DNA from: Barthelona sp. PCE
Taxonomy: Eukaryota
Reading direction: 5' to 3'
Assembly (NCBI GenBank): GCA_040285745.1
Contig: JAUFOR010000006.1
Coordinates: 62,001 to 126,000, forward strand
Length of the DNA: 64,000 nucleotides
The notes below the pieces were generated by a model. It did no database searches, was not told the DNA's origin, and worked only from the letters and a program-made list of their open reading frames with translations. The position numbers and the translations under genes are program-made. This document shows, one piece after another, positions 4,301 to 60,715 of this stretch; the stretch's first letter is position 1; the number at the start of each line of letters is the position of its first letter.

Positions 4301-5072
4301 CCCTAGCATCGTTAACTCTAGCAAGTGATACCTTCATCTTAGTGATTTGATGTTCTTGAAGTGTTAATTGTTGGAAACGAAGTGGAAATATTGAATCCTG
4401 GATTATTCCAATGTCTGTACAAGTCCACTCACACGTGTCCTTGTTATAATGAATATTTCCTTGACATTTGGTGTTAGCATTATCAGTCACATACTTTAAA
4501 CTACGTTCTGTTATAAAACTGCGTTTTGATGGAGTCGTAATATACACATCATTCAACATTTTTGCCAGTTCAGCGTCCGTAATCCTGATATTACTTGCTC
4601 GAATCATGCGTATAAAATCATCCTTTTCGAACTCAGGTTTTATCCAATTGTTCTTCAAAGCACTCCAGATGATCTTGATATGTTCATCGTTGAGTATCCT
4701 GCGAAGATAGTGTTTACCTGTGAAGATACACAAGCCAATTACATGACAAGAAGCTTTTGAAACCATATCACGTGATATAGGAGCCAGTCTTGGCCCCTTA
4801 ATATTGTTATAAGTAGCTAAAAGCTCTTCGTGAGTTAATATCGCGTACTTATAAGCATTAAAATCATTAGAGTTTGGTAGAACACAGTTTTGTATTTCCA
4901 AACAGCCTACTTCACGGTAATCTGAACGTAAGCCACCTTCAAGACACACATTAGAGTATAAGTGAACACGGACATGATAACTTTCATTATTTTGTTCTTT
5001 TGGATCACTTAGTCTTATTTTATCCATTGGAATACTCACATTGAACGATTGAAAAGTACCTTCTTTGGACAT
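1317..5072 (-). CDS. hAT-family DDE transposase (1251 aa)
   Basis: hAT motifs in the expected order: FD (MEFDLSSD), TDNG, CxxH (PCICHVLN), RW (VRWDT), and C-terminal SASNSGVEREFS...R dimerisation motif. Enclosed by TIRs. Confidence 0.88.
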   Translation of the reverse strand: MSKEGTFQSFNVSIPMDKIRLSDPKEQNNESYHVRVHLYSNVCLEGGLRSDYREVGCLEIQNCVLPNSNDFNAYKYAILTHEELLATYNNIKGPRLAPISRDMVSKASCHVIGLCIFTGKHYLRRILNDEHIKIIWSALKNNWIKPEFEKDDFIRMIRASNIRITDAELAKMLNDVYITTPSKRSFITERSLKYVTDNANTKCQGNIHYNKDTCEWTCTDIGIIQDSIFPLRFQQLTLQEHQITKMKVSLARVNDARGFALPFVFLVMDKSLKNIRSEYSPGSERAFRDYTTYYGEVVHPYILETIFNSAYVQAANNSENVTLFMEFDLSSDGYSAALIMLKVPTDLELVWVEHPFLESSTKMYTKDHLIITLEQYLDSLKGKFIIFDVFTTKFTVSHATEVVINPLDYPDFTVRNFEVPETDKGAKYKRAQDLCEQFLSRLKKYKIIQSYSIIERKNRDRWCLEDVIIDMGDSEVKIVVGTDNGTPEQLAFQKICDACSSISRVPCICHVLNKIMAKTSGFEFFPSHIQHQSYSPPYFDSFNSLRVSNETVTMDIIDQVSQNPFVEALFKKLDLSNLFTNRTISRSAAARLNSVVSLHETHPIFALSEPAAENESVTDDISGATINNLTEEWIESFVHSDSDVVEGGLISDDKLMFTFAYTSFHECQHLENLLSQRNACLLGVDLTLSNSLSNDAYRFNVLEHYTEFIDHLAMISLEKYAKMLDDQQKSLANFAKIQTLLTVDTMRVFYKYHAVWCEVTGRSISLSNVRWDTLEWIYDVLCGGLYMDIPKILFLPEGTETIPDDFAITMSHFDITEKFLNLKYHEVKDLAIKRMLKSNNTVCDEDHYRHFLSPFYEAMKDGNKQPHGFSLGPDMWVLARNYFSTYSRMIFIQRMSSKNDFSVLQSYFQVSILLLELRKWRSDLRIENEASLAAIYHDGLFEYVRHYFCKFLIMPEPLVAFLLSDLSTVELQDHNKEVKDITNDKPRKSCLKEELYQLYVDAKIPNINRGGLVKVTDRELVRLKGMMVFSFLPTKFKRCGSECPALHLISDHVYVNMAKDFNDPLLYRGLVGYIISILCTNYYLDFSPSNEDRKKVVMRYTPEVEPQTIVLPLSTGFLSPSRRSSNRMESELSPSAQSVREPPLSAQRVADEFDFNDTGIRERDVRAALVHGHTHESVKGLPGFRAIIRQHSSASASNSGVEREFSMLKRLHSKNQTKLSTRIRFNWFLLNEASAAPRITYDELKEIVKTI

Positions 5073-5194
5073 TAAAAAGATATCGTTGAGACTACCTGTG
5101 AAAAAAGTAAAAAATTGAGATATGCGCTACTAGATTCCACAAGATCTCTTTGTTTGTTATAGTTTTTACAATACCCACAGTGTGGGGTGGTTGA

Positions 5195-17265: not shown

Positions 17266-18311
17266 ATGAGCGACTGGATTTTAGCAATTCTTTCTGTAGT
17301 TGGATTCTTTCTCGGCATATACGTGCTGACATTCATCTTCACTGCGTTTTTCATTGTTGAGACTGAGACAGCTGTAATTATTGAGCGTTTTGGCAAATTT
17401 CACTCAAAAGTATGATTCTCCAAAGGCATTTCTGCTAAAGCATAGCACGAAAAGCCCACTTACATGTCTTTATAGCTTACATTTAGTTAGAGCCTGGTTT
17501 GCATTTTATGTGGCCTTGGATCGACAGACGTCGCAAGTTTATGTGGCGTCACAGCGAGTCGTGGACAGTGAGGGGCCGCAAGAGGCGCCATATTATTCAG
17601 AAGAAGTCATCCGTTATTGATCTTCGCCAAACAGTCCTTGATTTAGGTATTCTTTCAGTCATCACACGTGACAACGTTTCAATTTCCGTGTCCGGTGTTA
17701 TCATTTATAATATTTCAGATCCCGTTCGTGCTTTGTATGAAACTTCAGACCTTCACGCAGCTGTTGAGAAATTAGTACACACAAATATCCGTTCTGTCAT
17801 TGGTGGTCTTAACCTTGAGGATGCTTTTGCTTCACGTGCTGAAGTGAACAGGTTGCTTTTGCAGAAAGTTTCCAGAATTTGTAAGTGTTGGGGTATCACG
17901 ATTGATAAAATTGAACTTCTTGAGATCAATCCTTCACACGATGTCGTCAATGCCATGCATCTTCAACTTTCTTCCGAACGTACACGTCGTGCTCAGGTTA
18001 TTATTGCTCAGGGTCACAGACAAAAGGATAAGTTGGAAGCTGAGGGTCGTTCGCAAGCCGGTATCACTATCTCACAGGCTGAGAGCATTGCTGCTAAGCT
18101 TCGTGGCGTTGCTACCGCTACCGCCAAGACCACTATGGTTGAGGCTGAAGTAGAGCAGTTACGTAAACTCAGCGAAGCACTGAATGGTCTCGCTGACCCC
18201 GCTCAATACGTTTTGAGTTGGATGATGATCGAAGCCCTTCATCATATCGCTCTTAACAGTGATACTGTTGATATGATCTTGCCCATTGAACAGAATCTGG
18301 GCGCCGTTTAA
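17266..18311 (+). CDS. SPFH/band-7 (stomatin-like) membrane protein, 2 exons (17266-17409, 17487-18311)
   Basis: Splicing restores IIERFGKFHSK|LEPGLHFMWPWID; also IDLR, VITRDNV, IRSVIG, WGITI. N-terminal hydrophobic anchor. Confidence 0.88.
17410..17486 (+). other. Spliceosomal intron (77 nt)
   Basis: GTATGA...GCTTACATTTAG; phase 0; removal joins two parts of the SPFH domain in frame. Confidence 0.85.
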
Positions 18312-26919: not shown

Positions 26920-27486
26920 TTAGTTGGTCTCGTTGCCACGGACACGGGCCTGAGCGTTGGTAACGTAGATACCCCATTCCTTAGCGGCCTTGATAATCTC
27001 GACGCGCTTCTTGGCACTGACAGCGTGAGCAATCTCAGCAGAACAGATCTCAGTGTTGGTCTTGAGGACAGCGAGGTCCTTGACGTTGTGGACAACGAAT
27101 CTGTACAAACCGTTGGGAGCAAGATACTTAGTCTTCTTATCACTACCGAAACCAATGGAAACGTGCTTGCAACCGACTCCGCGGAAACGTCTTCTGAAGG
27201 CACCATCAATACCGTGAGGCTTTCTCCAGGAGGACTAAATGTGAGTATAATGAAAAAATATAACTGAACAGAACTATTTCTACACTTCAAAACCAAGATA
27301 TATCGCCCTTTCAAGGCAGGTATGTGCGTATGATATGAAGCAATAACCCGATTTGCAATGAGATATAGAAAAAAGTTCTTTCTTGACTTAACATACACCT
27401 ACACGCATAAATCTGTCAGATTGGAAGCGTTTGAAAGCGGCGGTGCGCTTCTTGACAATCTTTTTGGTGTTTGATGACTTAACCAT
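26920..27486 (-). CDS. RPL32: 60S ribosomal protein L32 (eL32), 2 exons (27486-27397, 27234-26920)
   Basis: Spliced product MVKSSNTKKIVKKRTAAFKRFQSDRFMRVG|SSWRKPHGIDGAFRRRFRG...IGFGSDKKTKY...AEIAHAVSAKKR, 134 aa. Confidence 0.95.
27235..27396 (-). other. Spliceosomal intron (162 nt) in RPL32
   Basis: GTATGT...ACTCACATTTAG; phase 0; removal restores the eL32 reading frame. Confidence 0.92.
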
Positions 27487-28924
27487 GGAAATAAAAGAAT
27501 GAAACTGAAAAGGAGCATTTCAGTATTATTTACTTAGTATGTATACATGTAATATTGGGAACAAAGTCATACAGCATAATGAATGGTGGGAATACGCAAT
27601 ATATCGCAAAAACAAAAAGCTTTCAAGTCATATCCCTATTCTGCAGCCATATTTACCAATTTAGTTAATCTCATGTCAACTTTTGATGTTGAACACTGGT
27701 TATCAAACCATGAATTGTTGAAGAGCAGGATAAATCGAATTTCAGGTTGGTTCAACGGTTAGTCTTATTTTGAGGTAGACCAAGATGAGATCTTAAGAGT
27801 GATGCCAGCCCAAAAGATGTTGAAATTAGCTATATATTCAATATCGAAAACCTGCTTGCACACGTTGGGAATCTTCCTTGAAAAGGTGATTCTACTATGC
27901 TTTGTAATGATAAACATCCGCGAATAGCGTGTTCATCATCATAAAAAGTGTATGAAACAGAAGGAGTTGGTGTGAATACCAAAATATGAAATTGGTTCTC
28001 AACCTATACAGTGACTCCGATGATTGATGTATCCCACGAAAAAAGTAAAATAAATGGTTTTTGTACCGTTTTTATTATGATTTATCGAAACAAGACAATA
28101 TTGTAAAGAATGGCGAAAAAACGGAGTAAGCCAATGACTAGAGCGATTACTTGCTCTTCTTCTTCATCAGACGTCTAAAAGTTAGGCTATATTGTTGTGA
28201 AAAAATGCTTCATACCTCTTGCGCTTTCTAGCTCTCATTCTCTTCTTTAACCACTTAGCACGCATTATATATAAACCTATAAATGTTAGTAAAGGGTAAT
28301 AAATATAAACTGGAACAGAAATGGTAAAACATTGTTACTGGTAAACTGTCTGCACTTTCCTACAGCCCTCACGTGCGTATTCCGGAGTGACAGTACCTAG
28401 ATGATGATCCAATATGATTTCACATACAAAGCAAGTTATATAAGCAAATAGAAGCTGTTACATCTTAGAAAGCATACGCCAATGTTCAAGATGGGGTAAA
28501 TCCAGGGTACAGGCGGTTTAATGCGCTCCACTACCCTCAATAATAAGATTCTGTTTGCCCGCATTTTTTTTTCTACATTTTGTTGTGTTTTGTAAATTAA
28601 TTACATGTTTAAGATATCAAACTATTGTTTTATCATGGCTAAACAATGAGAAATTCACTTTATTCAGTATAAATGTAAATAAAGCATATATAACTGCGTG
28701 ATTACAGTATCAGATCTTTATAATGCGTACATAAGAGCAATATAGTCATATTCACCTTTTAAAATACATACTTGTTGTCAATTCTTTTAGTTTCCAATAC
28801 TTTCCTGGATTATGGACATTACCTTCATATTAGTGATTTTTATTGCATATTAGCAACCTGATGTGGACTTATGGTGGATCTTACCCAGAGAATAGTTTGT
28901 TTGTTTTCTTTCTACCTCAAACAG

Positions 28925-40424: not shown

Positions 40425-40543
40425 GTTTCTCGAGCAAAAGGTTGATAAAAGTGTATACGCAAAGACCTGTTCTGAACAAAAAAGCGCAACCTTTTCTTGT
40501 TTGTCTTATTCTAACTCTTTTCATTTTTAATTTTTACTGAAAA

Positions 40544-41635
40544 ATGTCCGCTGCATCGAAGTCAACACGGTATGCTACTATTTTGCGTTTGAAACGCACT
40601 TTTAGAGAATTTCTAACATTTTGAAAAACTAAATCTAAAAAAGCAGCAACAGAAGAGGCTCTGGAAGAAGTATGCGTAGGCGACAATCACACATTCATTC
40701 AAATTGAAGAACTAGTTCGATCGGGAGTTGCAAAAGCAGATGCTAAAAAGTTACGTGATGCTGGTTTCTCAACTGTTGGTATGGTGCTGATGACACCACG
40801 CAAGGAACTTGTCAACATCAAGGGATTATCGGAAGGAAAGATTGAGAACATACTAAATCATTGTATTGAAATGGGCGGAGGTTTATTGAAAACAGGAAAT
40901 GAGATCAAACTTGAGCAAGAAACGAATATCCAGTACATTGAAACTGGATCTAAGTCAGTTGATCAGCTTTTAGGAGGAGGAGTGGAAACTGGAATTATTA
41001 CTGAAGTTTATGGTGAATTTCGTACGGGAAAGACTCAGTTGTGCCACTCGCTTGTGGTTAGTGCAGCTGTAGCTGGAAAAAAAGTAGCCTATATCGACAC
41101 AGAAGGAACTTTCCGTGCGGATCGTATCGAAGAAATTGCTATTGCTCGAGGACATGATGTAGAATATATATATGACTACATTGTGTATGCACGTGCGTAC
41201 ACTCACGAGATGCAAATGCAAATTCTGATTGATATAGCAAGAAAGATGTCAGAAGGTGATTTCCAATTGTTGATCGTAGATTCAATAACATCCTTGTTTA
41301 GAGTTGATTTTCAGGGTCGTGGAGAGCTCTCTGAGCGCCAACAGAAGCTAGGTGCTATGTTATCTCGTTTGATGAAAACTGCAGCAGAGTTCAATGTAGC
41401 TGTCGTCATGACAAATCAGGTTATGGCGGATCCAAGTGGAGGTGTGATGTCTTTTGGTGATGTTAAAAAGCCTATTGGAGGTCATATTCTAGCTCACGCA
41501 TCACATTGTCGACTTTATGCCCGTAAAGGAAAGGGTGAAAATCGTGTTATTAAATTAATCGATTCACCAAATCGTCCAGAAGGTGAAGCTGCTTATGTCA
41601 TATGTGAAGAAGGTATCAAAGATGGTTCTTTATAA
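40544..41635 (+). CDS. DMC1: Meiotic recombinase DMC1; proposed exons 40544-40569 and 40624-41635 (345 aa)
   Basis: GEFRTGKTQL, FRVDF.GRGEL.ERQQKL and GGHILAHAS are DMC1-type rather than RAD51-type. The conserved N-terminal domain (IEEL...G...AD.KKL.DAG) continues in frame upstream of the ORF-track start, back to 40625, with no ATG. Confidence 0.9.
40570..40623 (+). other. Putative spliceosomal intron (54 nt) with GT-TG boundaries
   Basis: GTATGC...TCTAACATTTTG; phase 2; restores the frame, whereas no AG from 40604 to 40679 does. Confidence 0.65.
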
Positions 41636-48884: not shown

Positions 48885-51800
48885 TTAGAAAGAAACTCGT
48901 TGTTCTTCAGTAAATGGAATGCCGGATTGTGTTGGCTCCATTTCCATAAAGTTGGGTGCGAACATATCGACCTCATATGTACTCTTCTGCTCCACCTTCT
49001 TATTTAGGTAAAGAGCTCCAATAACAAAGATGGTGATAAATATTGCAATCAGTACAAAGCCGAAGTAGGAAGTTTCCTCCTCAGGTTCGGGTTCAGGATC
49101 GGTGACATAAGTACCGGTCTCGACGTTACACACGGATCCAGATGACGACTGGACACCGCACACATCATAGAACGTGAACTCAACAACGGAAGGGTTGGTT
49201 CCAGCCATGTCGTCAGCCAGGAGCACGAGGGCGGAGCCCCCAGTACGAGGACCGAGGGATTTAACAACCTTTCCATCAAGGGACACACCACCGAGTTCAG
49301 CGGGCAGACGCAGAACGTCGAGTGTTTCAGTATCAATAACGAAACCAACAGTTGTACCGGTGACGGGGTTCGTGCCGTATGTGGCGAGCTTAGAGCCAAA
49401 TTTCCAACCACCAGTGAGACCAGCGAACGCGACATGCGCGTCATTAACGTCATTCTTGGTGACGACACCTGAGCGAGTGTTGACTACGTACATCACCTGA
49501 GTTACGGGCTTACCACCGAACATGTAAATGTCATCATCAACGACGATCGTTGATGCGGCGGCAGGAACTGTATCCTTGAGAGAGACTGTGAGAGTGCTCA
49601 TGAACACATTATCGATCTTGAAGAGGAGCGATGAGTGCGCAGTCTTACCCATGATGAAGAAGTGCGTTTCGGAGGCAGCGAGGGAGGCGTCGGAGAGCTC
49701 TGCAACATCGGAAGCGATGGGGATCGAGTCCATGTAAATTGTTGAAAGTTCCCAATCGACTGTGAGTACCTGAAGTGTTGCCTTCTGGTCGGCATCTACA
49801 CATACAATGCGTGTCGTGGTACCGGTGGTAGATGCACGTGATGCTGCGCAATTGCCGATGAAGTCGGTTGCGGTTGTTGTCACGGACATGGTGTACTCAT
49901 CCCATCGGTCGTCAGCCTCGACGTAGCGCTTCACGTAAGGCATAATGTCGCTTACGATGAAGAGATCGCCATCGTAAGAAACAAGAATATCACCAGAAAC
50001 GGTTTGAGGAGCAGTTGCCTCGACAGCGAACGGATCAACCTCGACAGGAGGCTTAGTGCCAATGGTCGTGGTGGAGTGTTGGCCGACAATGGTTAATCCA
50101 TCATCGTCAATGGTGAGGTGACCTGCACTCAGAAGAGTGGTGTCGGTCTGAATGTACTCAATGGTATGTGAGTTTTCAGAGACGTTAACAATGGCAGCGT
50201 GTGTTGCATTCAATGTGGGACACACAATAATGACATCGTTGTCAAATATGTTCACTGAAATGGCAGGACACTCGATATCGATGGGATCATAAGTAACCCA
50301 TCTATTATCCGGAAGGTACCCGTAAAGCTTGAGCTGGGTGTCAGCGTGCACTACAACATTACTGTGCCTGGCTGACTTTGCATCAAAGATCGCAGATGGA
50401 CCGAGGTTCGGACTATCGGTGATGTTCACAGTTGAAAGATTCATTGAAGGCATATCCATGAACACATGGTTACTACCGACAAAGAGGATGCCGTCAACAA
50501 CACCAATACCAATTGAATTAGGAGCAATAGAGATAGCACCATTTGAGGGAGCTGAAACTGGTTCCCATTCTTTCGCGCTGAAGCTGAACACCTTAATCAC
50601 ATCATCATGGTAGATTACAAACTCTTCTTGGACAAAAACATGAACAACATCACCCTCAAGTGCTTCGGAAATCTTCTCATCCTCGTTATTGGTGATACGA
50701 TGAATCTCAGCGTCATCAAGAATAACATAAGTGTTGTTACCGATGATCACTGATAAAACAGGCTCGGAATCAAAGCTATTGATGCGTTTGTAGAACACAG
50801 AGTTAGATTCATCCAACGTGACTTGCTCATCGCACTCATCGCCGGTCCAACCGTGCTTACATTGACACTCCTTATCCTTGTTGCAGAAACCGTTGGCGGG
50901 GCAGACAGGGCACTTGGGAATGGCCTCGTCGCACAGAACACCTCGGAAATCGGCATCGCACTCACAGCGCTCGGGGGCTACGCAAGTGCCGTGGACACAC
51001 GTGGAGCTACAGATAGGAACGTCGCACAAATCGCCTTCCCAGCCGTTCTTACATTCGTCGCAGCTAGCACCGGTGAAGGTACCACTACAGACGCATGTGT
51101 CAGGGGCAACACAGTTACCCGCACAGTCGTTACAGACGGGGACATCGCAGTTAGCGCCAGACCAGCCTGCGCGACACACGCAAATAGGATCGGAAAGTGA
51201 CTCGTTACAGAAAGAGTTGCCCTGGCAGTCGATGAGACATGTCTTGATGACTGTATTGTTCTCAATGCGGTAGCCGGGTAGGGTTTGATCGCAAAGACCA
51301 CCAGTGGTTCCCTCTTCACAGAGGCACATGCCGTCACCAGTTATGGTATCGTTACAGGATCCCTGGACACAAGCAGGACACTTCTCGCACTTTGCACCGA
51401 AGTATCCGGCATCGCATAGAGTGCAATCTCCATTAGAATCCTGAACGAGACCCTGGATACACTGATCACAGTTAGAACCCTCGCGTCCAGGTTCACAGAC
51501 ATCACACAGCGTACCAGTCCAATACTGGTTACACTCGCAAACACCATCACCAGTGATAGTATCGTTACAGGATCCCTGGACACATGTAGGACACTTCTCA
51601 CATGTTGCACCGAAGTATCCGGCATCGCAGAGTACACATTCGTCGTTGCTGTCAACTATAACTCCCTCAACACACAGGGAACAATCTGAGCCTCGACGAC
51701 CTGGAATGCACTCATCGCAAAGTGCACCAGACCAGTACTCATCGCAAATACACTTACCGTCACCGGAAGCGGTATCGCTACAGTGGCCGTTGTCGCATGA

Positions 51801-54800
51801 AGGACAAACTGTACAGGCAGCACCGAATCGATTGTTCATACAAACGTCACACACACCACCTGCGCTGGAGTTGAAACCAGTTGCACAAAGGCACGTGTTG
51901 TTTCCGGTGATTCCGTCAAAAACAACACCACCGGGTCCGCAGTCACGGGCGAGCTCACAAGAAGCACCGACATATCCGGGCATACATGTGGAACAGTTTG
52001 TACCGGGGTTGTAGCCTGCGGGACAGAGACACATACCTGATCCGGAAGTACCATCGTCGCATGTACCGCCGTTTTCGCAAGAGCGACATGGGATGGCGTT
52101 GGGACCATAATAACCAGAGTCGGTTTCTGAACAATCAGCGCCGGTGTAACTCTCGTTACACACACAGCTGCCGTTGCCGTTGAAGCCATCGAACAAAGTG
52201 CCGTGGATACAAGCGCCAGCCGCGATACATTCAGATGAGTAGTATTTGGGGATACACTCATCACAATCAGTACCAGTACGGCCGAACTCGCACATGTTAC
52301 ACAGAGTACCGGTGAAGTACTGCTCGCACTGACAGGTTCCGTTACCAGCACCATCAAGACACGTACCGCGCTCGCAGGGAGGACATGTGATACAGGCAGA
52401 GCCCTGTTCGTAGTAACCGGAGTTACAAGTGTCACAAAGCTCACCGCTGTATGCGTCAGAGACACACACAAGAGCACCAGTTCCGGTGATTCCGGCGTCA
52501 CAGATACCGTTGGGGGATTCGAGAGGACATGGCTCGCAGTGCTCACCGTAGTGGTTACGGACACACTCGTCGCAGTCTTCGCCAAAGAAGGTCGATCCGC
52601 AGCTCATTGACTTGGTAATGAACGCAGCGAAAGTACCAGTTTCAGTACACGTGAACGATACTGTACTTGCGAAAGGTGCGTATGTGATGGAGCACTGGGC
52701 AGGAACCCAAGTCTCGCCATCGAAACGCATGACAGTAATGTCAGATGCAGTGATGTTCTTCTCGTATGAGCCCACAACAGCAGTCTCAATATTCACTGCA
52801 CTAATTTCAATATCAATCAGTTCTGACGTACCCTGGTTTGTACTGACAGTTAACATATCTGTGAATGATACCAATGATGTAGGTATGTCCATATCCATGC
52901 ATTTGCGTGATATACTTATTAAAGAAAGAACAGTTGAAACAGCTGGACTTGCTGTTTCAGCAACAACAGGTGTCAGGTCACCAAAGGACTTCAGTTCAGT
53001 GACAGCTGCGGCAGCTGAGTGAAATTTAATAAAAGTAAACTCACGAACATACTCAATTCCATCGATCATATTTTCCATGACTATAGCTGACGCCTTCTTC
53101 ACAAGGGTATTGGCGTTAGCGAACAGACTACTGTTATAAAAATCTCGTGATTCGAGAGTAACATACATTGTATCTATCAATTCCAATGCTTGGAAACTAG
53201 CCAGTATTTTTTCTTGAGTGGTATCAGAAACCAGGAAGTTATCCAAGGCGATGGATATGGTGTCGATGACAGTATTCAAAAGAGCAGTAGACGAGTCTGC
53301 ACCAACTAAAGGCATAATGTTTTCAATAATATTTGAAGGAGATTGTTCTCCAATCAAGTCAAAGGTGGCCATCAATGATACATAGTCGACATAAACAAGC
53401 AAGTGGTCCATATCCATGGCATTGATGTCATCCTCTGTTAAATCCAATAAATTATCTCCTCCTCCAGCATTGATTGGCGTTCCTTTGTAATCTAAATCAG
53501 ACATTTTCGGAAACTCAACATCATAACCATACTTTGATCTTTCCAACATTCTAACAATTGTATTCGTAATATAGTTACTGATATGATTTGTTTGTTGTGC
53601 TTGAGCAGATACCGGAAGTTTAGTCTTACAGAATTCTTTAAACTGACTAGATGACACAGCAATTGAATCAATATCACTGCTATCCATCTCAGTTGCAACA
53701 GGTGCCTCCCCAAAATCAACAACAGCAGTTTGAATGTCACTAATTTCAAGATCACGACTTGTGATTTCAACGAAAAATGTAACATTTCCTGTGAACGGTA
53801 GAGCATTCTTTGTTATAAAGTCTCTAACAGAATCCATGGTTTTTAATATTGTTTTACGGCCTGTAACAGGGTGCATGTAGCCATATTTAAAAGAAAATCT
53901 TGGTCTAGGAACAATAGATTGGGCTAGAAAAGCTGGTGGATAAGAATTTTCAAGTTCAGGCTTATCAGGTACATAAGATAATTCAACATTACCACTATTG
54001 CTCAAGGTGGCATTGAATTCACCGCTTGCATCAATACAATGAGTTGAAAAACGTAGTTTATCAATGAAATCTCGTGTATCACTTGAACCTATTATGCTAC
54101 ATGTAGCCTGAAATTCAAATGTTGAACATGGAAGAATCATTTCATTAAGCAGTTCAAAACGATCCGACCATAAACGTGTTGCTTTAATATGTTGAACTGT
54201 AGCTGATGAAGCTCCTAACTTAAAAGCAGGATATAATTTAGTTATCCAATTAGTTTTAAACTTTGGTAAAACCATATAAACATCCCATAAATCAGTCTCA
54301 ATATTCTTTATCATATCATCAGAGAAACCTACGTAACGATCTGATTCTGTTGGTGGACCATCAATACTAACGACTTCGAAGGTACAGTTAAGCCTATCTT
54401 CAAAATTACGAGGAACAGCCTTTATCAGAATATTCTCAGAATAAGGGGCAATTTTTTCCACATCACGAATAGAATTGGCGACTTCAAGATCAAATGAACC
54501 GACTGTAACTGTTTTATATACTTCAATTTCGACGGTTAATGAGGTGTTACGACCGGAGTCGATATGAGAAACTGTTACAGTGATATCTAAATCACTGTTA
54601 TCATACATTTGTTCTAGAGCTGTCTTTGGCACGAGTATATTGTTTGATTTTATACTTGCAACAGTGGTATCACACCATTCATTAGCATATGTGATCCCGC
54701 TACTGTTTGTAAGTGAACAAGACCATTCTATAGACAAATGATCATTGCCAGCTATTGATGGATCAAAGATCGTTGTAGAAATCATTAATTCCTTATCAGG

Positions 54801-57800
54801 TGTACCAATAAGAGCAGTTTTAGCCGTGTGTATCTTAATATCACTGTATATAGAAGAGAATTCAATATTTGAAAATGTTTGGGTGCATAACTCTCCGTTT
54901 TCACTCTTCTTGAATGTAACACTGAAATTATATGAATAAATACCAACTGGAAGTGTAATAGGAACACTACTCAAAGAATGACCGGCTCGTTTTGTGAAAC
55001 CAATATCAACCGTAGGTCCAAAATGTTGTGATGTAACTTCCTTAATGAAATGAGAGGAAGTTTTTGAAGTTTGAGTAAACTTAAGCGACATTTTATCCCC
55101 GTTACTAATAACCTTATCGTAAGAAAGAGCTGCGGTTGGGCAAAAATCAGCATCTCTAATATAAAATGAACAAGAATCTGAGTGAACAGAACCAAAAACA
55201 TCAGTAAATACTACTTCGAACGTGTAATCGTCCTCTGTCAGCGTGTCAAATGCTAAGTCACTGAAATCAGTCTCAGTCAAAATAGGAGTTGCACCCTTCT
55301 TGACTGTGTAAGAAAACCCAGACACATCACCATCATTACAATGCAATCCTCTATCAAGACGGAATTTAACCGAAGATAGGTCAGAACCTGTTAACACACG
55401 TTTGTCACAAAATGCAGGAAGGCTAAATGTGGGGTTCAAAATATTCCCGAAAGAAGAAGAACCCGATAGAGTTACATTGATATATTGTGGTGTTGTACTT
55501 GCACGGAAACTACCAAAGTCTCCATAAGGCATAATTACAACAAATTGATTAGAATACCCTCGATCACCAAAGTAAACCCAGTTCCTTGATGATCCTTGTT
55601 TGAGTAAATATTCTGTACAACCACCAGGATGTGAAAGGCCATGATAGCCGTAATAGTTCTTAACTAAGATTGCAGAATCCTGCCACATTGGTATGAACCT
55701 CCTTATCGGTGCTATGAATTCAATCATTAGATTATTTCTAAAATTCATACTACTTATAATAGGATATATTTTTAACTTCTTTGAAGTCTGTGAAGCAATA
55801 TCACGGTTTCCAGGATAAGATATTAAGTCAATTGTAGATTTTATCGTCTTTGTACCAATACCCATATCTGCACAATTTGTTATACTCAAATCTACATAAT
55901 TAACATCGTTTATGTTGTATATAAACGTGATAGACTCAGCATTCCAATTGCCAATGTTACATCCATCTGTGTTACGTCTTGCAAAAACATAAGGACAATC
56001 GAGAGCACGCATTTCAACTGTACAACGATCTGTTACAAGAGAAGGCACTGTGATTTCAACGGTGAGTGGAGTATCTCTATCATAATAGTACTTTTTAATC
56101 GGAATTCGCTGAACATACCCATTAATAACTGAGATGTACTCTCTGTTATTTTCACCCATCCACACTGTATAGTTCGTGATGAATGTAACCCTTTTATCAA
56201 CGATTGTTTCAACACCATGTTTGATAAGAACATCGCAATAGGAAAAATGTTTTAATTCTTTGGTAACGGCAGGTATTGATAAGAAATTATGGCTTGTATT
56301 AACATATGACCAAGTCTCACCGGTTCCATTGAGACATTGGACATCAACATCGAACTCACCATCAACATAACTTTTATCTATAATCTCAGCATATGAAGAT
56401 CCTAAAGCTTGACCACTTTGTTCTTCAACAAGATTAAGATTAATGCTAATTGAATATGATTTAACACGCCTGACAAGGGATCTGATGATGATATCGGGTG
56501 AGAAACCTGTAACAAAACCATAACTATCAATAATCTTGATTCCATGTACCAAACTTATCTGACAATTTCCAATTTGTGACAGTTTAAAAGCGTAGGGGTA
56601 TCTTCCCTTTGCGTTAAAACGGCCTAGTTGCAGAATATCACTCTTTTTCCCATCACAAGCGTATTTTAAATAGAGTACAGATGCTTTGTAATATGGTACA
56701 CTTTCTTTTTGGAACGTGGCACTCACAACACCACTTAAAATATCGTTGCGGCGATAAAATGAATTCATATGACCAACTTTTGTTTGAAAAGGTGCACTAA
56801 CAGTGAAATCTAGATCAATGTTTTGTAAGCACTGACCTGTAATTTTATCTAATCTAAAGTCATCCAAACATCTGCAGACATCAGGAGCAACACATGATGA
56901 AAATTTTGGACAAAATGGACAAATTGGTGAGGCACCTAAACTGTTATCTTTAATATCAACCCATTGATAGCCAGTTTTAGGAACACATGCTTGATAACTA
57001 GAATTAGTACGCACGCATTCTGTGCCTGATATGTCATGACAATCCAGTGTACATGCCTCTACACATAATGTTCCGTCAAGGTTTTCTTCAAAACCAATTA
57101 GGCAACCAAAAACTCCTGCACCAATACACTTGCTATTATCAGGAAGATAATTACAAACGGGATCACAAGATCCATCAACGAATTCATACCCAGCAGGACA
57201 ACCAGTAATACTAAAGAGAGGATCACAAAAAGACTCCGGTGATTCACAGTTTGTACAAGTTCCATTTCTGTTGCATATACCAGTTGCACAATCACCAGGA
57301 CAAGCAAATTCCAACGATATTTCAGTTCCCACCCAATCAGCTTGAATCATAATATATAAATCATCTTTATCAAAGGGTATTTCGACAGCACGTGTGTAAC
57401 CTTGACTGCTAGTCATATTAAACATTGCTATGTAATCGTTGATGTCACTTAGCTGGAAAGAACCATCAAAATATGAGGTTGGGCGTATGGTTGATACTTG
57501 AACCCAAGCAAATCGGACAGAAGTGTAGTAACCTGGTACTGTTGGTCTTTGAATCTTGATAACGAGGGGAATAGATGCATTATATACATCTTTAGCTGTC
57601 TGTAAATGTGCTAAATCTTGTTTTGAAAAATGGAACACCGTTGGATACATTCGCTCATTTTCACTTACATTAAAAGCCCATTGGCCATCTGCAGCTTCTA
57701 ATAACCGGTACTCACAGCGCTCTCCGTAGTATTTGTCTGTGTTACATGAACAATCAGAGCTTCCAGCTACATTACCATCACCTTCTCTACAAAAAAAAGT

Positions 57801-60488
57801 TTGATCTTCAATACTCAACGTCATATCAACATATTGCGTTGAATACAACATCATGTTGACGTCTATACCATTCAAAAATGGCATATCCATGTTAGGAGAA
57901 TTAAAAGCTATTTGTCCTTCACGACCAAGACGTTTTCTATCCATATTTGCGGTACTATCAAATAATAAAGCTCCTGCATATGCATCCAACACACTTCCGT
58001 CTTGACGAGTACCAGTTATTCGACCTAAATAAGCCTTATTTGATAGAACATGTCCGACAGTAAGTTTTGGTGACGTACTAATGTTTCCAAGAGAAGCATA
58101 TGTCATTTTGTATGTTGTTGGCCTATAAGCGACCCATGGTAAAGGATTGTTAATAGCATCACCAGGTAAAGGATCAAAATCGTGGAAAGAAATGGAAGAA
58201 ATTTGTTGAGGATATTCTATGCATATCATTACAGTTACATTGACTCCAGGATCAAATATTTCTTGTGAATAAGATGTAGAAATGAATCTAGAAGTACAAC
58301 GCATTTCATTAATTTTAATGTTATTACCAACGGCAGCATCATAATATAATCCATTTGACATTGTCAAAATTTTTCTGCCACCGTCATCTGGCATAGTTGT
58401 TTTAAATATACAACCAGCAGTGTAACCTTCAAAAACAATACATTTATAAGTATTTGTTTCAGAAGGAAATGGAATAATACCTTCATCTTTTAGAAACAAC
58501 GGAACAGCGTGTTGGTTACCAGATGAATAAGTTGACAGAGCTGTTGCATAACCAGTTCTATCAGAAAGATATCGCGTATAATCACCATCCAATGTTCCTG
58601 ATGTTAAACATGATGATAAACTGTAAGATGTTGCACCTCTATGGAAATGACTGTTACTGTGGATTGTGGTACATGCACCTATTAAATGAAGATTATTAGG
58701 GATGCCTTTTCCTTGGATTAGCAAAAATCCAGAATTATCGTCAGAATTCCAGTACAACTCATCAGTTATATGATTAATAATCATTTGTTTAGGAACATAA
58801 ACACTTATTTGAGAATCGTATCCTGGTGCATCATCTGAATAGTAAACATAGTGTTTTAATGGAGAAAATGACATGAATTCAAAATTGGATCTACCCTTAA
58901 AAGGAGATGTTGAAGTGAATTGTCCTCTATGTATCATCACCACTGTTTGAGCTGGAACAACCATTTTAATAAGTTGATTGGCCATGGAATAAGGTAGTTT
59001 ATGATTGTCAAATTCAAAATGTCCAGGGGATTTTTTCAGAAAATCTATAAAAGTATCTCTATGAGCTGGTACATCATCAATATAAAAAGAAGTTAGAACT
59101 ACACCAGAGTTATTTTCTAAATAATAGCAAGCAGAAGGAACAATATCATTCTTGTAATGGTGAATGAGTGTTTCAGTAGAAAATATTTCATAAAGGTAAT
59201 TGTCGTGTGTTGGTGTAAACCAATTAGTCTCACAATTATGAGACACTTTGAGTGTTAAATCAGTGATAAGAGATGAACTGTAAATATACGATAGTCTGGA
59301 TCTAAACATACGTGACACTGTGCTGTAATCTTTAATCATATAGTTTGGATTTGAATTGATCATTCCCTTTTGAATAACACTAGCTTGTTTTCTAAGAGAC
59401 AAAGGATCATTGTGGCTCTTAAAAACAAATGTATAATAGTAACTACGTTCTTTTTTGAAAAATGTGTGACCTTCTTTAGCAAAATATGTCCTCACAGAAT
59501 ATAAAGAATCTCGAGAAAGTGAAAGGGTGTTCAAATCAATGGTCACCAAATCACCTCGCGTAAACATTGTTCCTAAAGTGTGTAATAAGTTATCTTCTTC
59601 ATCGAAAAGTTCAACTGTTATATCAAAGACAGATTCAGGAAGTTTAGGGATACCATATGTGAGCGTATCAACAAGCAAGTCGAAGGAATCAGTCGTGGAA
59701 TCGAAGGAAAGCTTGAGTTCAGTCTCGTAATGAGGGAATGTTTTATCAACCGCAACAATAGGTCTACTATGCGTTGAAATCTCAATTTCACAGTGTTTTC
59801 CTGCAAAACCCGACGCACAAGCACAGTAAAATGTTGATAACCCATCTGGAACAACACCTCCATTCTCACATGAAATTGGAATAGTGTTAGTTGCAAAAAT
59901 TCTGCCTTTTTCTTCTGTATCCAAATCTGAATATGATGCCCAGAAACCTTCAAATACCTCAGGGACATATATGGGAAGACTGACCATAAAACCACAACCA
60001 TCATGTTGAGTGTAAGTTTCATCTATATAAGGAGTACTGATATTTGCTTCTATAACTTCAAAACTAAGATAGCTCTTTGATGAATTACCGCAAACAAGTG
60101 ATTCTACGGTTATATCATTGACTACTACACATGAATTACAACTATATGTCCCGAAATCGTCATATTTCCATTCAAGTGAAGGTACGGGAACGTATTTAAG
60201 ACTGTTATATGTTGTTACTGTTATTCCATCGTAGAAATAATCCTCAGAATAACTGTAAAATACTGCACTCTTTGAAAAACATGTGTGCTGGGGGCATGGA
60301 TGTTTAAACCCAGAATGTGGGAAAGAAATCTGATCAACAGCCACTATCTTACCAAACATACTCCAAACTCTACCCCTTTCTGTTGAATGTAGCTCAAAAC
60401 CGTATACATCTTTTGGCGCTAGGTTTTCAAATGCAGAAATGCATATAAATAGTGCAAAAACAGCTATGAATGTACAGAAAAGACCCAT
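48885..60488 (-). CDS. Giant type-I membrane surface protein (3867 aa): signal peptide, EGF repeats, REJ/GPS-like region, laminin-EGF array, Kelch-like region, TM helix, short tail
   Basis: N-terminal signal peptide; many CxCxxG(F/Y/W)xGxxC motifs; DP...L..EWSC (REJ-like); W...C...FTCTETGTFA (GPS-like); IYMFGG (Kelch-like); TM FGFVLIAIFITIFVIGALYL. Confidence 0.85.
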   Translation of the reverse strand: MGLFCTFIAVFALFICISAFENLAPKDVYGFELHSTERGRVWSMFGKIVAVDQISFPHSGFKHPCPQHTCFSKSAVFYSYSEDYFYDGITVTTYNSLKYVPVPSLEWKYDDFGTYSCNSCVVVNDITVESLVCGNSSKSYLSFEVIEANISTPYIDETYTQHDGCGFMVSLPIYVPEVFEGFWASYSDLDTEEKGRIFATNTIPISCENGGVVPDGLSTFYCACASGFAGKHCEIEISTHSRPIVAVDKTFPHYETELKLSFDSTTDSFDLLVDTLTYGIPKLPESVFDITVELFDEEDNLLHTLGTMFTRGDLVTIDLNTLSLSRDSLYSVRTYFAKEGHTFFKKERSYYYTFVFKSHNDPLSLRKQASVIQKGMINSNPNYMIKDYSTVSRMFRSRLSYIYSSSLITDLTLKVSHNCETNWFTPTHDNYLYEIFSTETLIHHYKNDIVPSACYYLENNSGVVLTSFYIDDVPAHRDTFIDFLKKSPGHFEFDNHKLPYSMANQLIKMVVPAQTVVMIHRGQFTSTSPFKGRSNFEFMSFSPLKHYVYYSDDAPGYDSQISVYVPKQMIINHITDELYWNSDDNSGFLLIQGKGIPNNLHLIGACTTIHSNSHFHRGATSYSLSSCLTSGTLDGDYTRYLSDRTGYATALSTYSSGNQHAVPLFLKDEGIIPFPSETNTYKCIVFEGYTAGCIFKTTMPDDGGRKILTMSNGLYYDAAVGNNIKINEMRCTSRFISTSYSQEIFDPGVNVTVMICIEYPQQISSISFHDFDPLPGDAINNPLPWVAYRPTTYKMTYASLGNISTSPKLTVGHVLSNKAYLGRITGTRQDGSVLDAYAGALLFDSTANMDRKRLGREGQIAFNSPNMDMPFLNGIDVNMMLYSTQYVDMTLSIEDQTFFCREGDGNVAGSSDCSCNTDKYYGERCEYRLLEAADGQWAFNVSENERMYPTVFHFSKQDLAHLQTAKDVYNASIPLVIKIQRPTVPGYYTSVRFAWVQVSTIRPTSYFDGSFQLSDINDYIAMFNMTSSQGYTRAVEIPFDKDDLYIMIQADWVGTEISLEFACPGDCATGICNRNGTCTNCESPESFCDPLFSITGCPAGYEFVDGSCDPVCNYLPDNSKCIGAGVFGCLIGFEENLDGTLCVEACTLDCHDISGTECVRTNSSYQACVPKTGYQWVDIKDNSLGASPICPFCPKFSSCVAPDVCRCLDDFRLDKITGQCLQNIDLDFTVSAPFQTKVGHMNSFYRRNDILSGVVSATFQKESVPYYKASVLYLKYACDGKKSDILQLGRFNAKGRYPYAFKLSQIGNCQISLVHGIKIIDSYGFVTGFSPDIIIRSLVRRVKSYSISINLNLVEEQSGQALGSSYAEIIDKSYVDGEFDVDVQCLNGTGETWSYVNTSHNFLSIPAVTKELKHFSYCDVLIKHGVETIVDKRVTFITNYTVWMGENNREYISVINGYVQRIPIKKYYYDRDTPLTVEITVPSLVTDRCTVEMRALDCPYVFARRNTDGCNIGNWNAESITFIYNINDVNYVDLSITNCADMGIGTKTIKSTIDLISYPGNRDIASQTSKKLKIYPIISSMNFRNNLMIEFIAPIRRFIPMWQDSAILVKNYYGYHGLSHPGGCTEYLLKQGSSRNWVYFGDRGYSNQFVVIMPYGDFGSFRASTTPQYINVTLSGSSSFGNILNPTFSLPAFCDKRVLTGSDLSSVKFRLDRGLHCNDGDVSGFSYTVKKGATPILTETDFSDLAFDTLTEDDYTFEVVFTDVFGSVHSDSCSFYIRDADFCPTAALSYDKVISNGDKMSLKFTQTSKTSSHFIKEVTSQHFGPTVDIGFTKRAGHSLSSVPITLPVGIYSYNFSVTFKKSENGELCTQTFSNIEFSSIYSDIKIHTAKTALIGTPDKELMISTTIFDPSIAGNDHLSIEWSCSLTNSSGITYANEWCDTTVASIKSNNILVPKTALEQMYDNSDLDITVTVSHIDSGRNTSLTVEIEVYKTVTVGSFDLEVANSIRDVEKIAPYSENILIKAVPRNFEDRLNCTFEVVSIDGPPTESDRYVGFSDDMIKNIETDLWDVYMVLPKFKTNWITKLYPAFKLGASSATVQHIKATRLWSDRFELLNEMILPCSTFEFQATCSIIGSSDTRDFIDKLRFSTHCIDASGEFNATLSNSGNVELSYVPDKPELENSYPPAFLAQSIVPRPRFSFKYGYMHPVTGRKTILKTMDSVRDFITKNALPFTGNVTFFVEITSRDLEISDIQTAVVDFGEAPVATEMDSSDIDSIAVSSSQFKEFCKTKLPVSAQAQQTNHISNYITNTIVRMLERSKYGYDVEFPKMSDLDYKGTPINAGGGDNLLDLTEDDINAMDMDHLLVYVDYVSLMATFDLIGEQSPSNIIENIMPLVGADSSTALLNTVIDTISIALDNFLVSDTTQEKILASFQALELIDTMYVTLESRDFYNSSLFANANTLVKKASAIVMENMIDGIEYVREFTFIKFHSAAAAVTELKSFGDLTPVVAETASPAVSTVLSLISISRKCMDMDIPTSLVSFTDMLTVSTNQGTSELIDIEISAVNIETAVVGSYEKNITASDITVMRFDGETWVPAQCSITYAPFASTVSFTCTETGTFAAFITKSMSCGSTFFGEDCDECVRNHYGEHCEPCPLESPNGICDAGITGTGALVCVSDAYSGELCDTCNSGYYEQGSACITCPPCERGTCLDGAGNGTCQCEQYFTGTLCNMCEFGRTGTDCDECIPKYYSSECIAAGACIHGTLFDGFNGNGSCVCNESYTGADCSETDSGYYGPNAIPCRSCENGGTCDDGTSGSGMCLCPAGYNPGTNCSTCMPGYVGASCELARDCGPGGVVFDGITGNNTCLCATGFNSSAGGVCDVCMNNRFGAACTVCPSCDNGHCSDTASGDGKCICDEYWSGALCDECIPGRRGSDCSLCVEGVIVDSNDECVLCDAGYFGATCEKCPTCVQGSCNDTITGDGVCECNQYWTGTLCDVCEPGREGSNCDQCIQGLVQDSNGDCTLCDAGYFGAKCEKCPACVQGSCNDTITGDGMCLCEEGTTGGLCDQTLPGYRIENNTVIKTCLIDCQGNSFCNESLSDPICVCRAGWSGANCDVPVCNDCAGNCVAPDTCVCSGTFTGASCDECKNGWEGDLCDVPICSSTCVHGTCVAPERCECDADFRGVLCDEAIPKCPVCPANGFCNKDKECQCKHGWTGDECDEQVTLDESNSVFYKRINSFDSEPVLSVIIGNNTYVILDDAEIHRITNNEDEKISEALEGDVVHVFVQEEFVIYHDDVIKVFSFSAKEWEPVSAPSNGAISIAPNSIGIGVVDGILFVGSNHVFMDMPSMNLSTVNITDSPNLGPSAIFDAKSARHSNVVVHADTQLKLYGYLPDNRWVTYDPIDIECPAISVNIFDNDVIIVCPTLNATHAAIVNVSENSHTIEYIQTDTTLLSAGHLTIDDDGLTIVGQHSTTTIGTKPPVEVDPFAVEATAPQTVSGDILVSYDGDLFIVSDIMPYVKRYVEADDRWDEYTMSVTTTATDFIGNCAASRASTTGTTTRIVCVDADQKATLQVLTVDWELSTIYMDSIPIASDVAELSDASLAASETHFFIMGKTAHSSLLFKIDNVFMSTLTVSLKDTVPAAASTIVVDDDIYMFGGKPVTQVMYVVNTRSGVVTKNDVNDAHVAFAGLTGGWKFGSKLATYGTNPVTGTTVGFVIDTETLDVLRLPAELGGVSLDGKVVKSLGPRTGGSALVLLADDMAGTNPSVVEFTFYDVCGVQSSSGSVCNVETGTYVTDPEPEPEEETSYFGFVLIAIFITIFVIGALYLNKKVEQKSTYEVDMFAPNFMEMEPTQSGIPFTEEQRVSF
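51334..51629. repeat. Intragenic tandem duplication, 213-bp period (EGF module)
   Basis: 51334-51416 and 51547-51629 are near-identical (CDAGYFGAxCEKCPxCVQGSCNDTITGDG). Confidence 0.9.
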
Positions 60489-60715
60489 AAATAAATTTAA
60501 AAGAGCTTTGTTAAGTTGTAAAACTAAAAACGTTTTTTTTTTTAAAGATCTTGTTCTGTTATTCCTTTCTTAATTTAAAGCAACAGAGAAACGTATTTTC
60601 TACAAGTTTATTCCTAAAAAAAACATTTTCCATTCACTTTGTGTCAATCAGGTAACAAGTTAAATGGGATTTACAAAATTTTCAAATTATTCTTCTTACT
60701 GGCGCTGAATCGGTT

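Follow-up and report, generated by a model that had tools for sequence, protein, structure and literature searches.

A probable GT-TG intron with fixed branch-to-acceptor spacing in a DMC1-type recombinase gene of Barthelona sp. PCE

Introduction

The introns closest in form to those described here are the fused branch/3' splice site introns of Giardia, Trichomonas, and Spironucleus, which, according to the available sections of the papers describing them, pair a GTATG donor with CTRAC, 4 nt, and a terminal AG at strict spacing (PMC6679479, PMC10711314). The Giardia motif is CT[A|G]ACACACAG, its introns are short and 5' biased, as they are in Barthelona, and moving the branch abolished splicing in T. 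vaginalis (PMC6679479, PMC10711314). The non-canonical junctions given for Giardia are CT-AG, AT-AC, and motif-less; motif-bearing GT-TG introns are not reported in those sections (PMC6679479, PMC10711314).

Endings other than AG occur in animal U2-type introns, where both GT-TG and GT-AT have been described (36 human genes; 23 GT-TG and 14 GT-AT introns in Drosophila). In the accessible parts of these reports, however, human TG acceptors amount to 0.02% of sites and need a neighboring AG, with no constitutive ones found, and 22 of the 23 fly GT-TG introns have a similar canonical alternative (PMC2374985, PMC4528330, PMC4176328). U12-type introns also tolerate GT-AT, GT-TG, and other ends, with strict branch-to-end spacing (PMC1557818, in part). 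Fixed spacing in metamonads, and GT-TG and GT-AT introns beside AG in animals, are already known.

The 3' AG is described as being read twice, early by U2AF35 and then at exon ligation, when the last G pairs with G+1 and A-2 with the branch adenosine (PMC7505975, PMC12707134, in part). In the available sections of a study of yeast lacking Prp18, BG and HAU ends were used, with UUG and UAU in the most efficient group, and sites could lie as close as 7 nt; at short distances, neither Prp18 nor Slu7 was required (PMC10711555). The literature searched, which was covered in part, did not contain an obligate TG acceptor in a single-copy gene combined with several non-AG ends within one small set of introns; the supplementary intron tables of the metamonad papers could bear on this combination.

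The DMC1-type gene and its predicted intron

We analyzed a 64,000-nt stretch of contig JAUFOR010000006.1 (the window), in which a DMC1-type gene had been predicted to need an intron running from GT to TG (Table 1). Rereading the window confirmed the placement of the ATG at 40544, the GTATGC donor, the 12-mer TCTAACATTTTG at 40612-40623, and the in-register TGA at 40622-40624, and the two intron ends to which the 12-mer had been likened do exist, in the RPL32-like gene (27235, -) and the Band-7 gene (17486, +). Joining 40569 to 40624 reproduces the predicted in-frame product of 345 aa. The 336-aa open frame of the gene has its first in-frame ATG 52 codons in. The 54-nt intron is a multiple of three, so retention keeps the reading frame, and the original prediction that retention leads to an in-frame stop also proved correct: this TGA, at codon 27, is the only stop in the retained frame.

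Table 1. Positions of the features discussed. Plain numbers are window positions; others are locus or genome (G000) coordinates.
Feature	Position	Strand	Detail
Reference GT-AG intron, Band-7 gene	17410..17486	+	77 nt
Reference GT-AG intron, gene presumed from its translation to be RPL32-like	27235..27396	-	162 nt
Reference GT-AG intron, short basic ORF	28175..28215	-	41 nt
Exon 1 of DMC1-type gene	40544..40569	+	ATG + 26 nt, phase 2; G+C 0.54 versus 0.31 in intron
5' splice site GTATGC	40570..40575	+	genome's consensus donor
Proposed GT-TG intron	40570..40623	+	54 nt; 43% T (short AG introns, 24-51% T)
Rival GT-AG intron of public model P0001	40587..40679	+	donor GTTTGA, acceptor GCGTAG (-18.7 bits), without branch motif
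Two AGs 5' of branch motif	40604..40607	+	unproductive with donor 40570; 40605, 7.5 bits
Branch motif CTAAC	40613..40617	+	predicted branch A at 40616, 7 nt before last intron base
TG at acceptor position	40622..40623	+	assembly sequence; with A40624 forms TGA stopping a retained transcript
Exon 2, divergent DMC1-type recombinase	40624..41635	+	acidic N-terminal stretch, HhH domain, RecA core; stop TAA
Predicted GT-TG intron, UBC4-type E2 gene L013	L013:1501-1560 = G000:C3:973742-973801	+	60 nt
Predicted GT-AT intron, PP2A catalytic subunit gene L216	L216:1501-1541 = G000:C3:936661-936701	-	41 nt, frameshifting
Predicted GT-AT intron, Tctex-1 gene L228	L228:1501-1540 = G000:C8:985172-985211	+	40 nt
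TG candidate L012	G000:C3:923318-923360	-	
AT candidate L218	G000:C4:133750-133792	-	
AT candidate L377	ends G000:C2:132377	+	
TG candidate L009	G000:C2:1658991-1659050	-	would lie in 5' UTR
TG or AT candidate L381	ends G000:C2:856051	+	would lie in 5' UTR

The DMC1 intron matches the genome consensus at all positions except -2. A GTATG donor followed by the branch motif, with any ending and in any frame, arose in 8 of 5,000 dinucleotide shuffles of 40506-40700, and the sequence from 40624 to 40679 (71% purine, 14% T) is unlike introns. Set against the fused-branch introns of other metamonads, the locus has the GTATG donor and the +7 spacing and lacks the terminal AG. The consensus of U12-type introns is RTATCCT for the donor and TCCTTAAC for the branch, whereas the donor and branch in Barthelona are U2-like, those of the DMC1 intron being GTATGC and TTTCTAAC. 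We consider that 40570-40623 is probably a real U2-type intron ending in TG, with a probability of roughly two in three, and, on present sequence, no other consensus splicing path in this gene would yield a full protein.

If this segment were never spliced, the protein would depend on readthrough of the TGA or on a non-AUG start (an in-frame CTG lies near 40661), or the locus would be a decaying, poorly expressed allele. The lone stop in the retained frame is compatible with this, as are conservation that begins about 22 codons into exon 2, a long tree branch (1.28), and a score below the DMC1 cut-off; but the TGA still lies in a setting of consensus donor and branch motif, at the shuffle frequency given above, the frame is intact with its Walker A and loop motifs, and the gene encodes the sole full-length recombinase found. 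TGA also terminates 11 of 102 long ORFs, on which ground we rejected TGA as a sense codon, and we give a protein made without splicing very little credence.

AG acceptors and competing gene models at DMC1

With donor 40570, the upstream AGs at 40605 and 40607 yield products of 14 and 16 aa, and any of the 14 AGs at 40643-40750 yields 10-29 aa; the nearest downstream AG lies 20 nt from the TG, and none is productive up to 40750. The original prediction had held that the two upstream AGs lead to stops and that those from 40643 to 40679 are unusable, and both points stood for this donor. In-frame GT-AG models from other donors, which it had not mentioned, nevertheless exist: donor 40587 has 12 in-frame AGs, and an intron at 40587-40679 reproduces, letter for letter from the window, the public Barthelona protein P0001 (332 aa), the best of 120 listed homologues. 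This best match marks the DNA as coming from a barthelonid-type metamonad; the organism is a single-celled anaerobe. As P0001 derives from the same DNA, it is a rival gene model and provides no independent evidence. The public gene models were made with GeneMark-ET/AUGUSTUS/PASA, as stated in the available part of PMC11316075. Walker A falls at residue 138 in the 345-aa model and at residue 125 in the 332-aa model, and the homologue quartiles are 125-140; with no conservation at the DMC1 N terminus, neither model is favored by homology. Gene-prediction tools of the kind used for the public models favor GT-AG introns.

Acceptors were scored with a matrix built from 31 ORF-supported intron ends with the position -2 column left out (training range, 10.3-17.1 bits). 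The DMC1 TG end scored 17.0 bits, the AG at 40605 scored 7.5, and the 14 downstream AGs scored -17.5 to -32.3. Because the training set was selected by motif and the score is therefore partly circular, the spacing counts and the unselected sample described below outweigh it.

Intron grammar across the genome

The Barthelona genome assembly (G000) is 10.2 Mb, gene-dense, and intron-poor. In it, GTATG followed after 15-45 nt by CTNACHHTHAG gave 85 matches versus 19 for reversed-pattern controls. Relaxing the pattern to GTATG-N15..45-CTNAC-Nk-AG gave 75, 198, and 94 matches for k=3, 4, and 5, with 152, 130, and 168 in the corresponding reversed controls; with controls that high, the neighboring spacings were taken as background, and the excess is about 110 matches at the single spacing k=4. 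The fixed spacing is thus visible in the DNA itself. The original prediction had proposed that the acceptor is chosen by a fixed distance from the branch point, and this, like the GT-TG intron itself, is backed by the genome-wide spacing, by the acceptor score, and by a second TG intron with homology support (see below).

To set beside these motif-based counts, 264 kb was read without motif choice and introns were judged by eye. Among 149 dominant ORFs in this sample, 17 lacked a Met in the first 35 codons, 7 with a clear intron; six of the seven introns end in AG at +7 from the branch A, and the seventh is that of DMC1. Among the six, the branch motif is a variant in two and the donor is GTTTG in one. 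GTATG is the commonest donor, many AG ends seemingly without GTATG belong to longer introns of 97-248 nt, and exon position +1 shows no base preference. Compared with the introns of Giardia, Trichomonas, and Spironucleus, those of Barthelona differ in having a T-rich spacer, a free N in the branch motif, and a terminal dinucleotide that varies (TG, AT).

The spacing rule is not absolute, as the AG intron of L062 ends at +8. This intron, in a WD40 gene (G000:C2:1362476-1362518, -), has an extra T before its AG, which could be real slack or a homopolymer error. A start-codon intron with a GTTTG donor right after the ATG was seen in L255 (G000:C6 near 433160, -). In the window, 28277-28427 (-) is a probable 5' UTR intron ahead of the short basic ORF, with GTATG 149 nt upstream; it carries CTAACATTTAT and then AG and could end at AT (+7) or at AG (+9).

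Other introns predicted to end in TG or AT

The genome-wide scan for GTATG...CTNAC-NNNN-TG introns proposed with the original prediction showed no overall excess (17 matches versus 23 controls). A[ACT] endings were likewise not enriched genome-wide (28 matches versus 42 controls), nor were longer non-AG introns of 62-92 nt (13 versus 30). Without an overall excess of TG or AT endings, every case has to be argued from the gene in which it occurs.

The string CTNACATTYTG occurs at 66 sites, of which 62 distinct contexts were classified, 47 inside coding frames and 15 outside. In four of these 15 (DMC1, L013, L012, and L009), the site is preceded by GTATG at 43-60 nt and followed by a long frame. 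For CTNACATTYAT, 51 contexts from 83 sites were classified, and the AT survey is to that extent incomplete; a set of 28 GTATG matches with AA, AC, or AT as their last two bases contained two conserved genes, L216 and L228, with AT at the fixed position. In the UBC4-type E2 gene (L013), the 60-nt intron cannot be retained. Splicing at its TG would leave three residues between DPP and SAGP (147 aa), and a CAG 3 nt downstream would leave two (146 aa), as in the public model P0123. The loop motif is carried by 113 of 120 homologue matches, 112 of which have three residues, and the lone two-residue one is P0123. In the E2 paralogue L113, an intron interrupts the matching codon position and has AG at +7.

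In the PP2A catalytic subunit gene (L216), exon 2 gives an ungapped alignment to the human protein that starts at residue 36 and runs through to the end, and its next Met lies 160 codons in; a search with exon 1 alone returned no phosphatase match. The predicted Tctex-1 protein (L228; 9+104=113 aa) has the register and length of the human chain, but left unspliced the gene is open as well, and that frame contains a Met 50 codons upstream. For L012, neither a family nor a homologue was found, and it therefore stays a candidate.

A filter for introns that the gene needs, applied to motif-selected loci, passed 39 of 62 AG sites, 3 of 49 TG sites, and 2 of 31 AT sites, and none with CG (0/4), GG (0/6), AC (0/15), or any of five further endings. 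Eight rows with other endings (TA, 3/18; TT, 2/36; AA, 2/30; CT, 1/15) were inspected by eye and set aside: the AG of L062 lies one base further on, and the rest fall within exon 2 of an AG intron, mark the edge of a gene, or would need long joins that have no support. The six main non-AG cases end, 7 nt from the branch A, in TTG, TTG, CTG, TAT, TAT, and TAT. Each of these exceptions puts a T in place of the consensus base; most of them follow a run of T, and L012 lies outside one. The branch motif is CTAAC in all six versus 22 of 39 AG introns (one-sided p=0.046). We estimate about 6-8 non-AG cases among very roughly 200 introns, a figure drawn from the spacing counts and the longer introns, and non-AG ends may make up a few percent of introns in Barthelona.

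The same observations bear on whether the T at 40622 is a base-call or assembly error or a minority allele of the culture that was sequenced, the true base being A in an ordinary GT-AG intron. One substitution would restore a perfect consensus end, the exceptions are all changes to T and mostly follow a T run, L062 has its extra T, and the public proteins share the same DNA sequence and hence do not test this base. Against this, 6-8 cases in about 200 introns would need 1-2% error at two bases, and random error at that rate does not fit the intact long frames (3894 and 2250 codons; 102 ORFs of at least 300 aa totaling 71,497 codons in 264 kb), although context-specific error is possible. No CG, GG, or AC ending passed the filter, two different changes (A to T and G to T) are involved, one case (L012) lies outside a T run, and CTAAC in all six main cases is not predicted by base-call error. 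We regard such an error as unlikely.

It is also conceivable that the T is real and the mRNA is made through a canonical AG, from donor 40587 (GTTTGA) to 40643 or later (e.g., 40679), with the E2, PP2A, and Tctex-1 introns slipping downstream in the same way. Twelve in-frame AGs are available to donor 40587, P0001 uses one of them, and a GTTTG donor was seen once in the unselected sample. In-frame AGs also lie 3 (E2), 9 (PP2A), and 6 (Tctex-1) nt downstream, so these three genes could splice there with the loss of 1-3 residues; such an AG is present in 3 of 6 non-AG cases versus 11 of 39 AG introns (p=0.27), or in 3 of the 4 homology-backed cases (p=0.09). However, scores for the AG acceptors at DMC1 are between -17 and -32 bits and their distance from the branch A is 27-63 nt or more, there is no genome-wide excess at neighboring spacings, the stronger donor 40570 would yield only frameshifted products, and the E2 loop deletion occurs in 0 of 112 other homologues. 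Canonical AG use at these loci therefore appears improbable. E2, PP2A, and Tctex-1 resemble the animal tandem acceptors in having a nearby in-frame AG, whereas the DMC1 TG differs from them in that no AG is productive with its donor.

Splicing machinery and a possible mechanism

The major spliceosome is present in the genome: U2 snRNA was found (51.7 bits, with GTAGTA), as were Prp8, U2AF35, and Isy1. Searches that recovered Isy1 gave no match for Prp18 or Slu7; they were run without a positive control, and these weak negatives do not imply absence. U2AF35 (L232:1045-2100, +) keeps the A-2 pocket residues F20, C27, R28, and N164, and Prp8 keeps W1575, E1576, Q1594, and W1609. Loss of U2AF35 or altered Prp8 fidelity residues were therefore ruled out as the cause, and neither protein gives a simple explanation for the non-AG ends. 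In the second zinc finger of U2AF35, R150, Q151, and F165 are replaced by P, E, and Y, and the protein has a long Q/R/N-rich tail. Extra U2 pairing in non-AG introns was considered and none was seen (5.5 versus 5.5). Exonic adenosines were not invoked as a helper, as the yeast effect is reported for AG/GAG sites and not for BG.

If the DMC1 intron does end in TG, it would be defined by the GTATG donor and a branch motif fused to the 3' end, and would stop at whichever base lies 7 nt past the branch adenosine. The first step would then proceed with no AG requirement, and in the second the terminal G would still pair with G+1 while the contact between A-2 and the branch adenosine would be given up. 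We infer that non-AG ends could be tolerated because Prp18 and Slu7, as ruler and proofreading factors, have been lost or are very divergent. The likely effect would be constitutive, perhaps less efficient splicing, with retained transcripts ending at codon 27; it is plausible that splicing is slower and that unspliced transcripts stop early.

A broader proposal, which we hold tentatively and at slightly under even odds, is that a wild-type major spliceosome here works without a 3' AG check at exon ligation, with Prp18 and Slu7 gone, cutting 7 nt past the branch A and leaving a few percent of introns obligately GT-TG or GT-AT. Yeast without Prp18 or with Prp8 Q1594A resembles this state, in the available sections of the reports, in its UUG- and UAU-type ends, branch-proximal sites down to 7 nt, and U-rich context; such ends are minor errors there and would be the wild-type route in Barthelona, where Prp8 Q1594 is intact (PMC10711555, PMC12707134). 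If the proposal were true, Barthelona would show in nature what the prp18 deletion shows in yeast, and would be a counterexample to the view that constitutive TG acceptors do not occur. An intron-poor eukaryote would depend in core genes on non-AG acceptors that animals use only as alternatives beside AG, and it would offer a natural test of distance versus sequence in 3' splice site choice and of enforcement by Prp18 and Slu7. Public models of this lineage would be wrong at P0001 and P0123, and AG-only aligners would miss such introns in other metamonads.

The recombinase and its likely role

The DMC1-type protein scored 379.8 bits on the DMC1 model (TIGR02238; cut-off, 447.7) and 347.8 bits on the RAD51 model (cut-off, 478), below the cut-off in both cases, and its best PDB matches are human DMC1. 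A tree of 28 rows places the protein, on its long branch, within the DMC1 group (93/86, not starred), and three RAD51 rows form a separate group at 99/98; row L305, labeled RAD51-type before the tree was built, was assigned to DMC1 by subsequent analysis. A protein search of the genome gave 3 matches and a Rad51-family search gave 4, and apart from the DMC1-type gene these comprise a 241-aa frame that lacks the N-terminal domain, plus weak paralogues. RAD51 was not found by these protein and family searches, which leaves the DMC1-type gene as the sole full-length RAD51/DMC1-type recombinase found. Mnd1 was found; Hop2 was not, which is a weak negative for this genome.

With a sole full-length recombinase found and RAD51 not found, a vegetative role is probable, and we infer that the protein probably also serves vegetative repair. 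In fornicates that lost Rad51, Dmc1 has been proposed to act outside meiosis, and those lineages are alike in having a DMC1-type recombinase where RAD51 was not found; the fornicates examined have two paralogues, versus one strongly divergent copy here (PMC8516963, available sections). A single DMC1 without RAD51 bears on DNA repair in these cells.

This context is relevant to a further suggestion of the original prediction, that a weak acceptor could gate meiosis-specific expression; this is a special case of the TG reading, in which the intron would be real and spliced mainly in meiosis. The identity of the gene, the presence of Mnd1, and the early stop upon retention would suit a regulated gate, and TG acceptors have been speculated to be regulatory bottlenecks (PMC2374985, in part). 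Nonetheless, the protein is probably needed in vegetative cells given that RAD51 was not found, and the same exception occurs in housekeeping genes (E2, PP2A, Tctex-1). RNA structure, looked for as a bridge to a distant AG, showed no unusual fold in the DMC1 intron region (z=0.37), Hop2 was not found (weak), and no sexual stage has been observed in barthelonids according to the available part of bioRxiv 10.1101/2025.05.23.655837. We consider meiotic gating decidedly improbable, and the suggestion is unsupported for a sole recombinase whose non-AG end is shared by housekeeping genes; the DMC1 TG is better read as a tolerated variant than as a meiotic switch.

The recombinase (40625-41632, +) is without a 6-residue and a 2-residue stretch of human DMC1 and evolves much faster than its relatives. 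DMC1 models from related lineages (P0012, P0014, and P0122) have odd N termini, and a 9-residue insert after Walker A in P0122 resembles a retained 27-nt intron; the introns of these lineages may be mis-modeled. Metagenome scans gave 0 exact matches to an exon 2 stretch and 79 related loci, none above 55% identity.

Other features of the window

Two further frames were noted in the window. A 1269-aa frame at 1317-5126 (-) has no Pfam family, and near-identical copies of a 72-nt segment from it are present at several sites on C2 and C4, which indicates that it belongs to a multi-copy family. At 48885-60569 (-), a single 3894-aa frame matches EGF-like domains weakly and is richer in G+C toward the 3' end.
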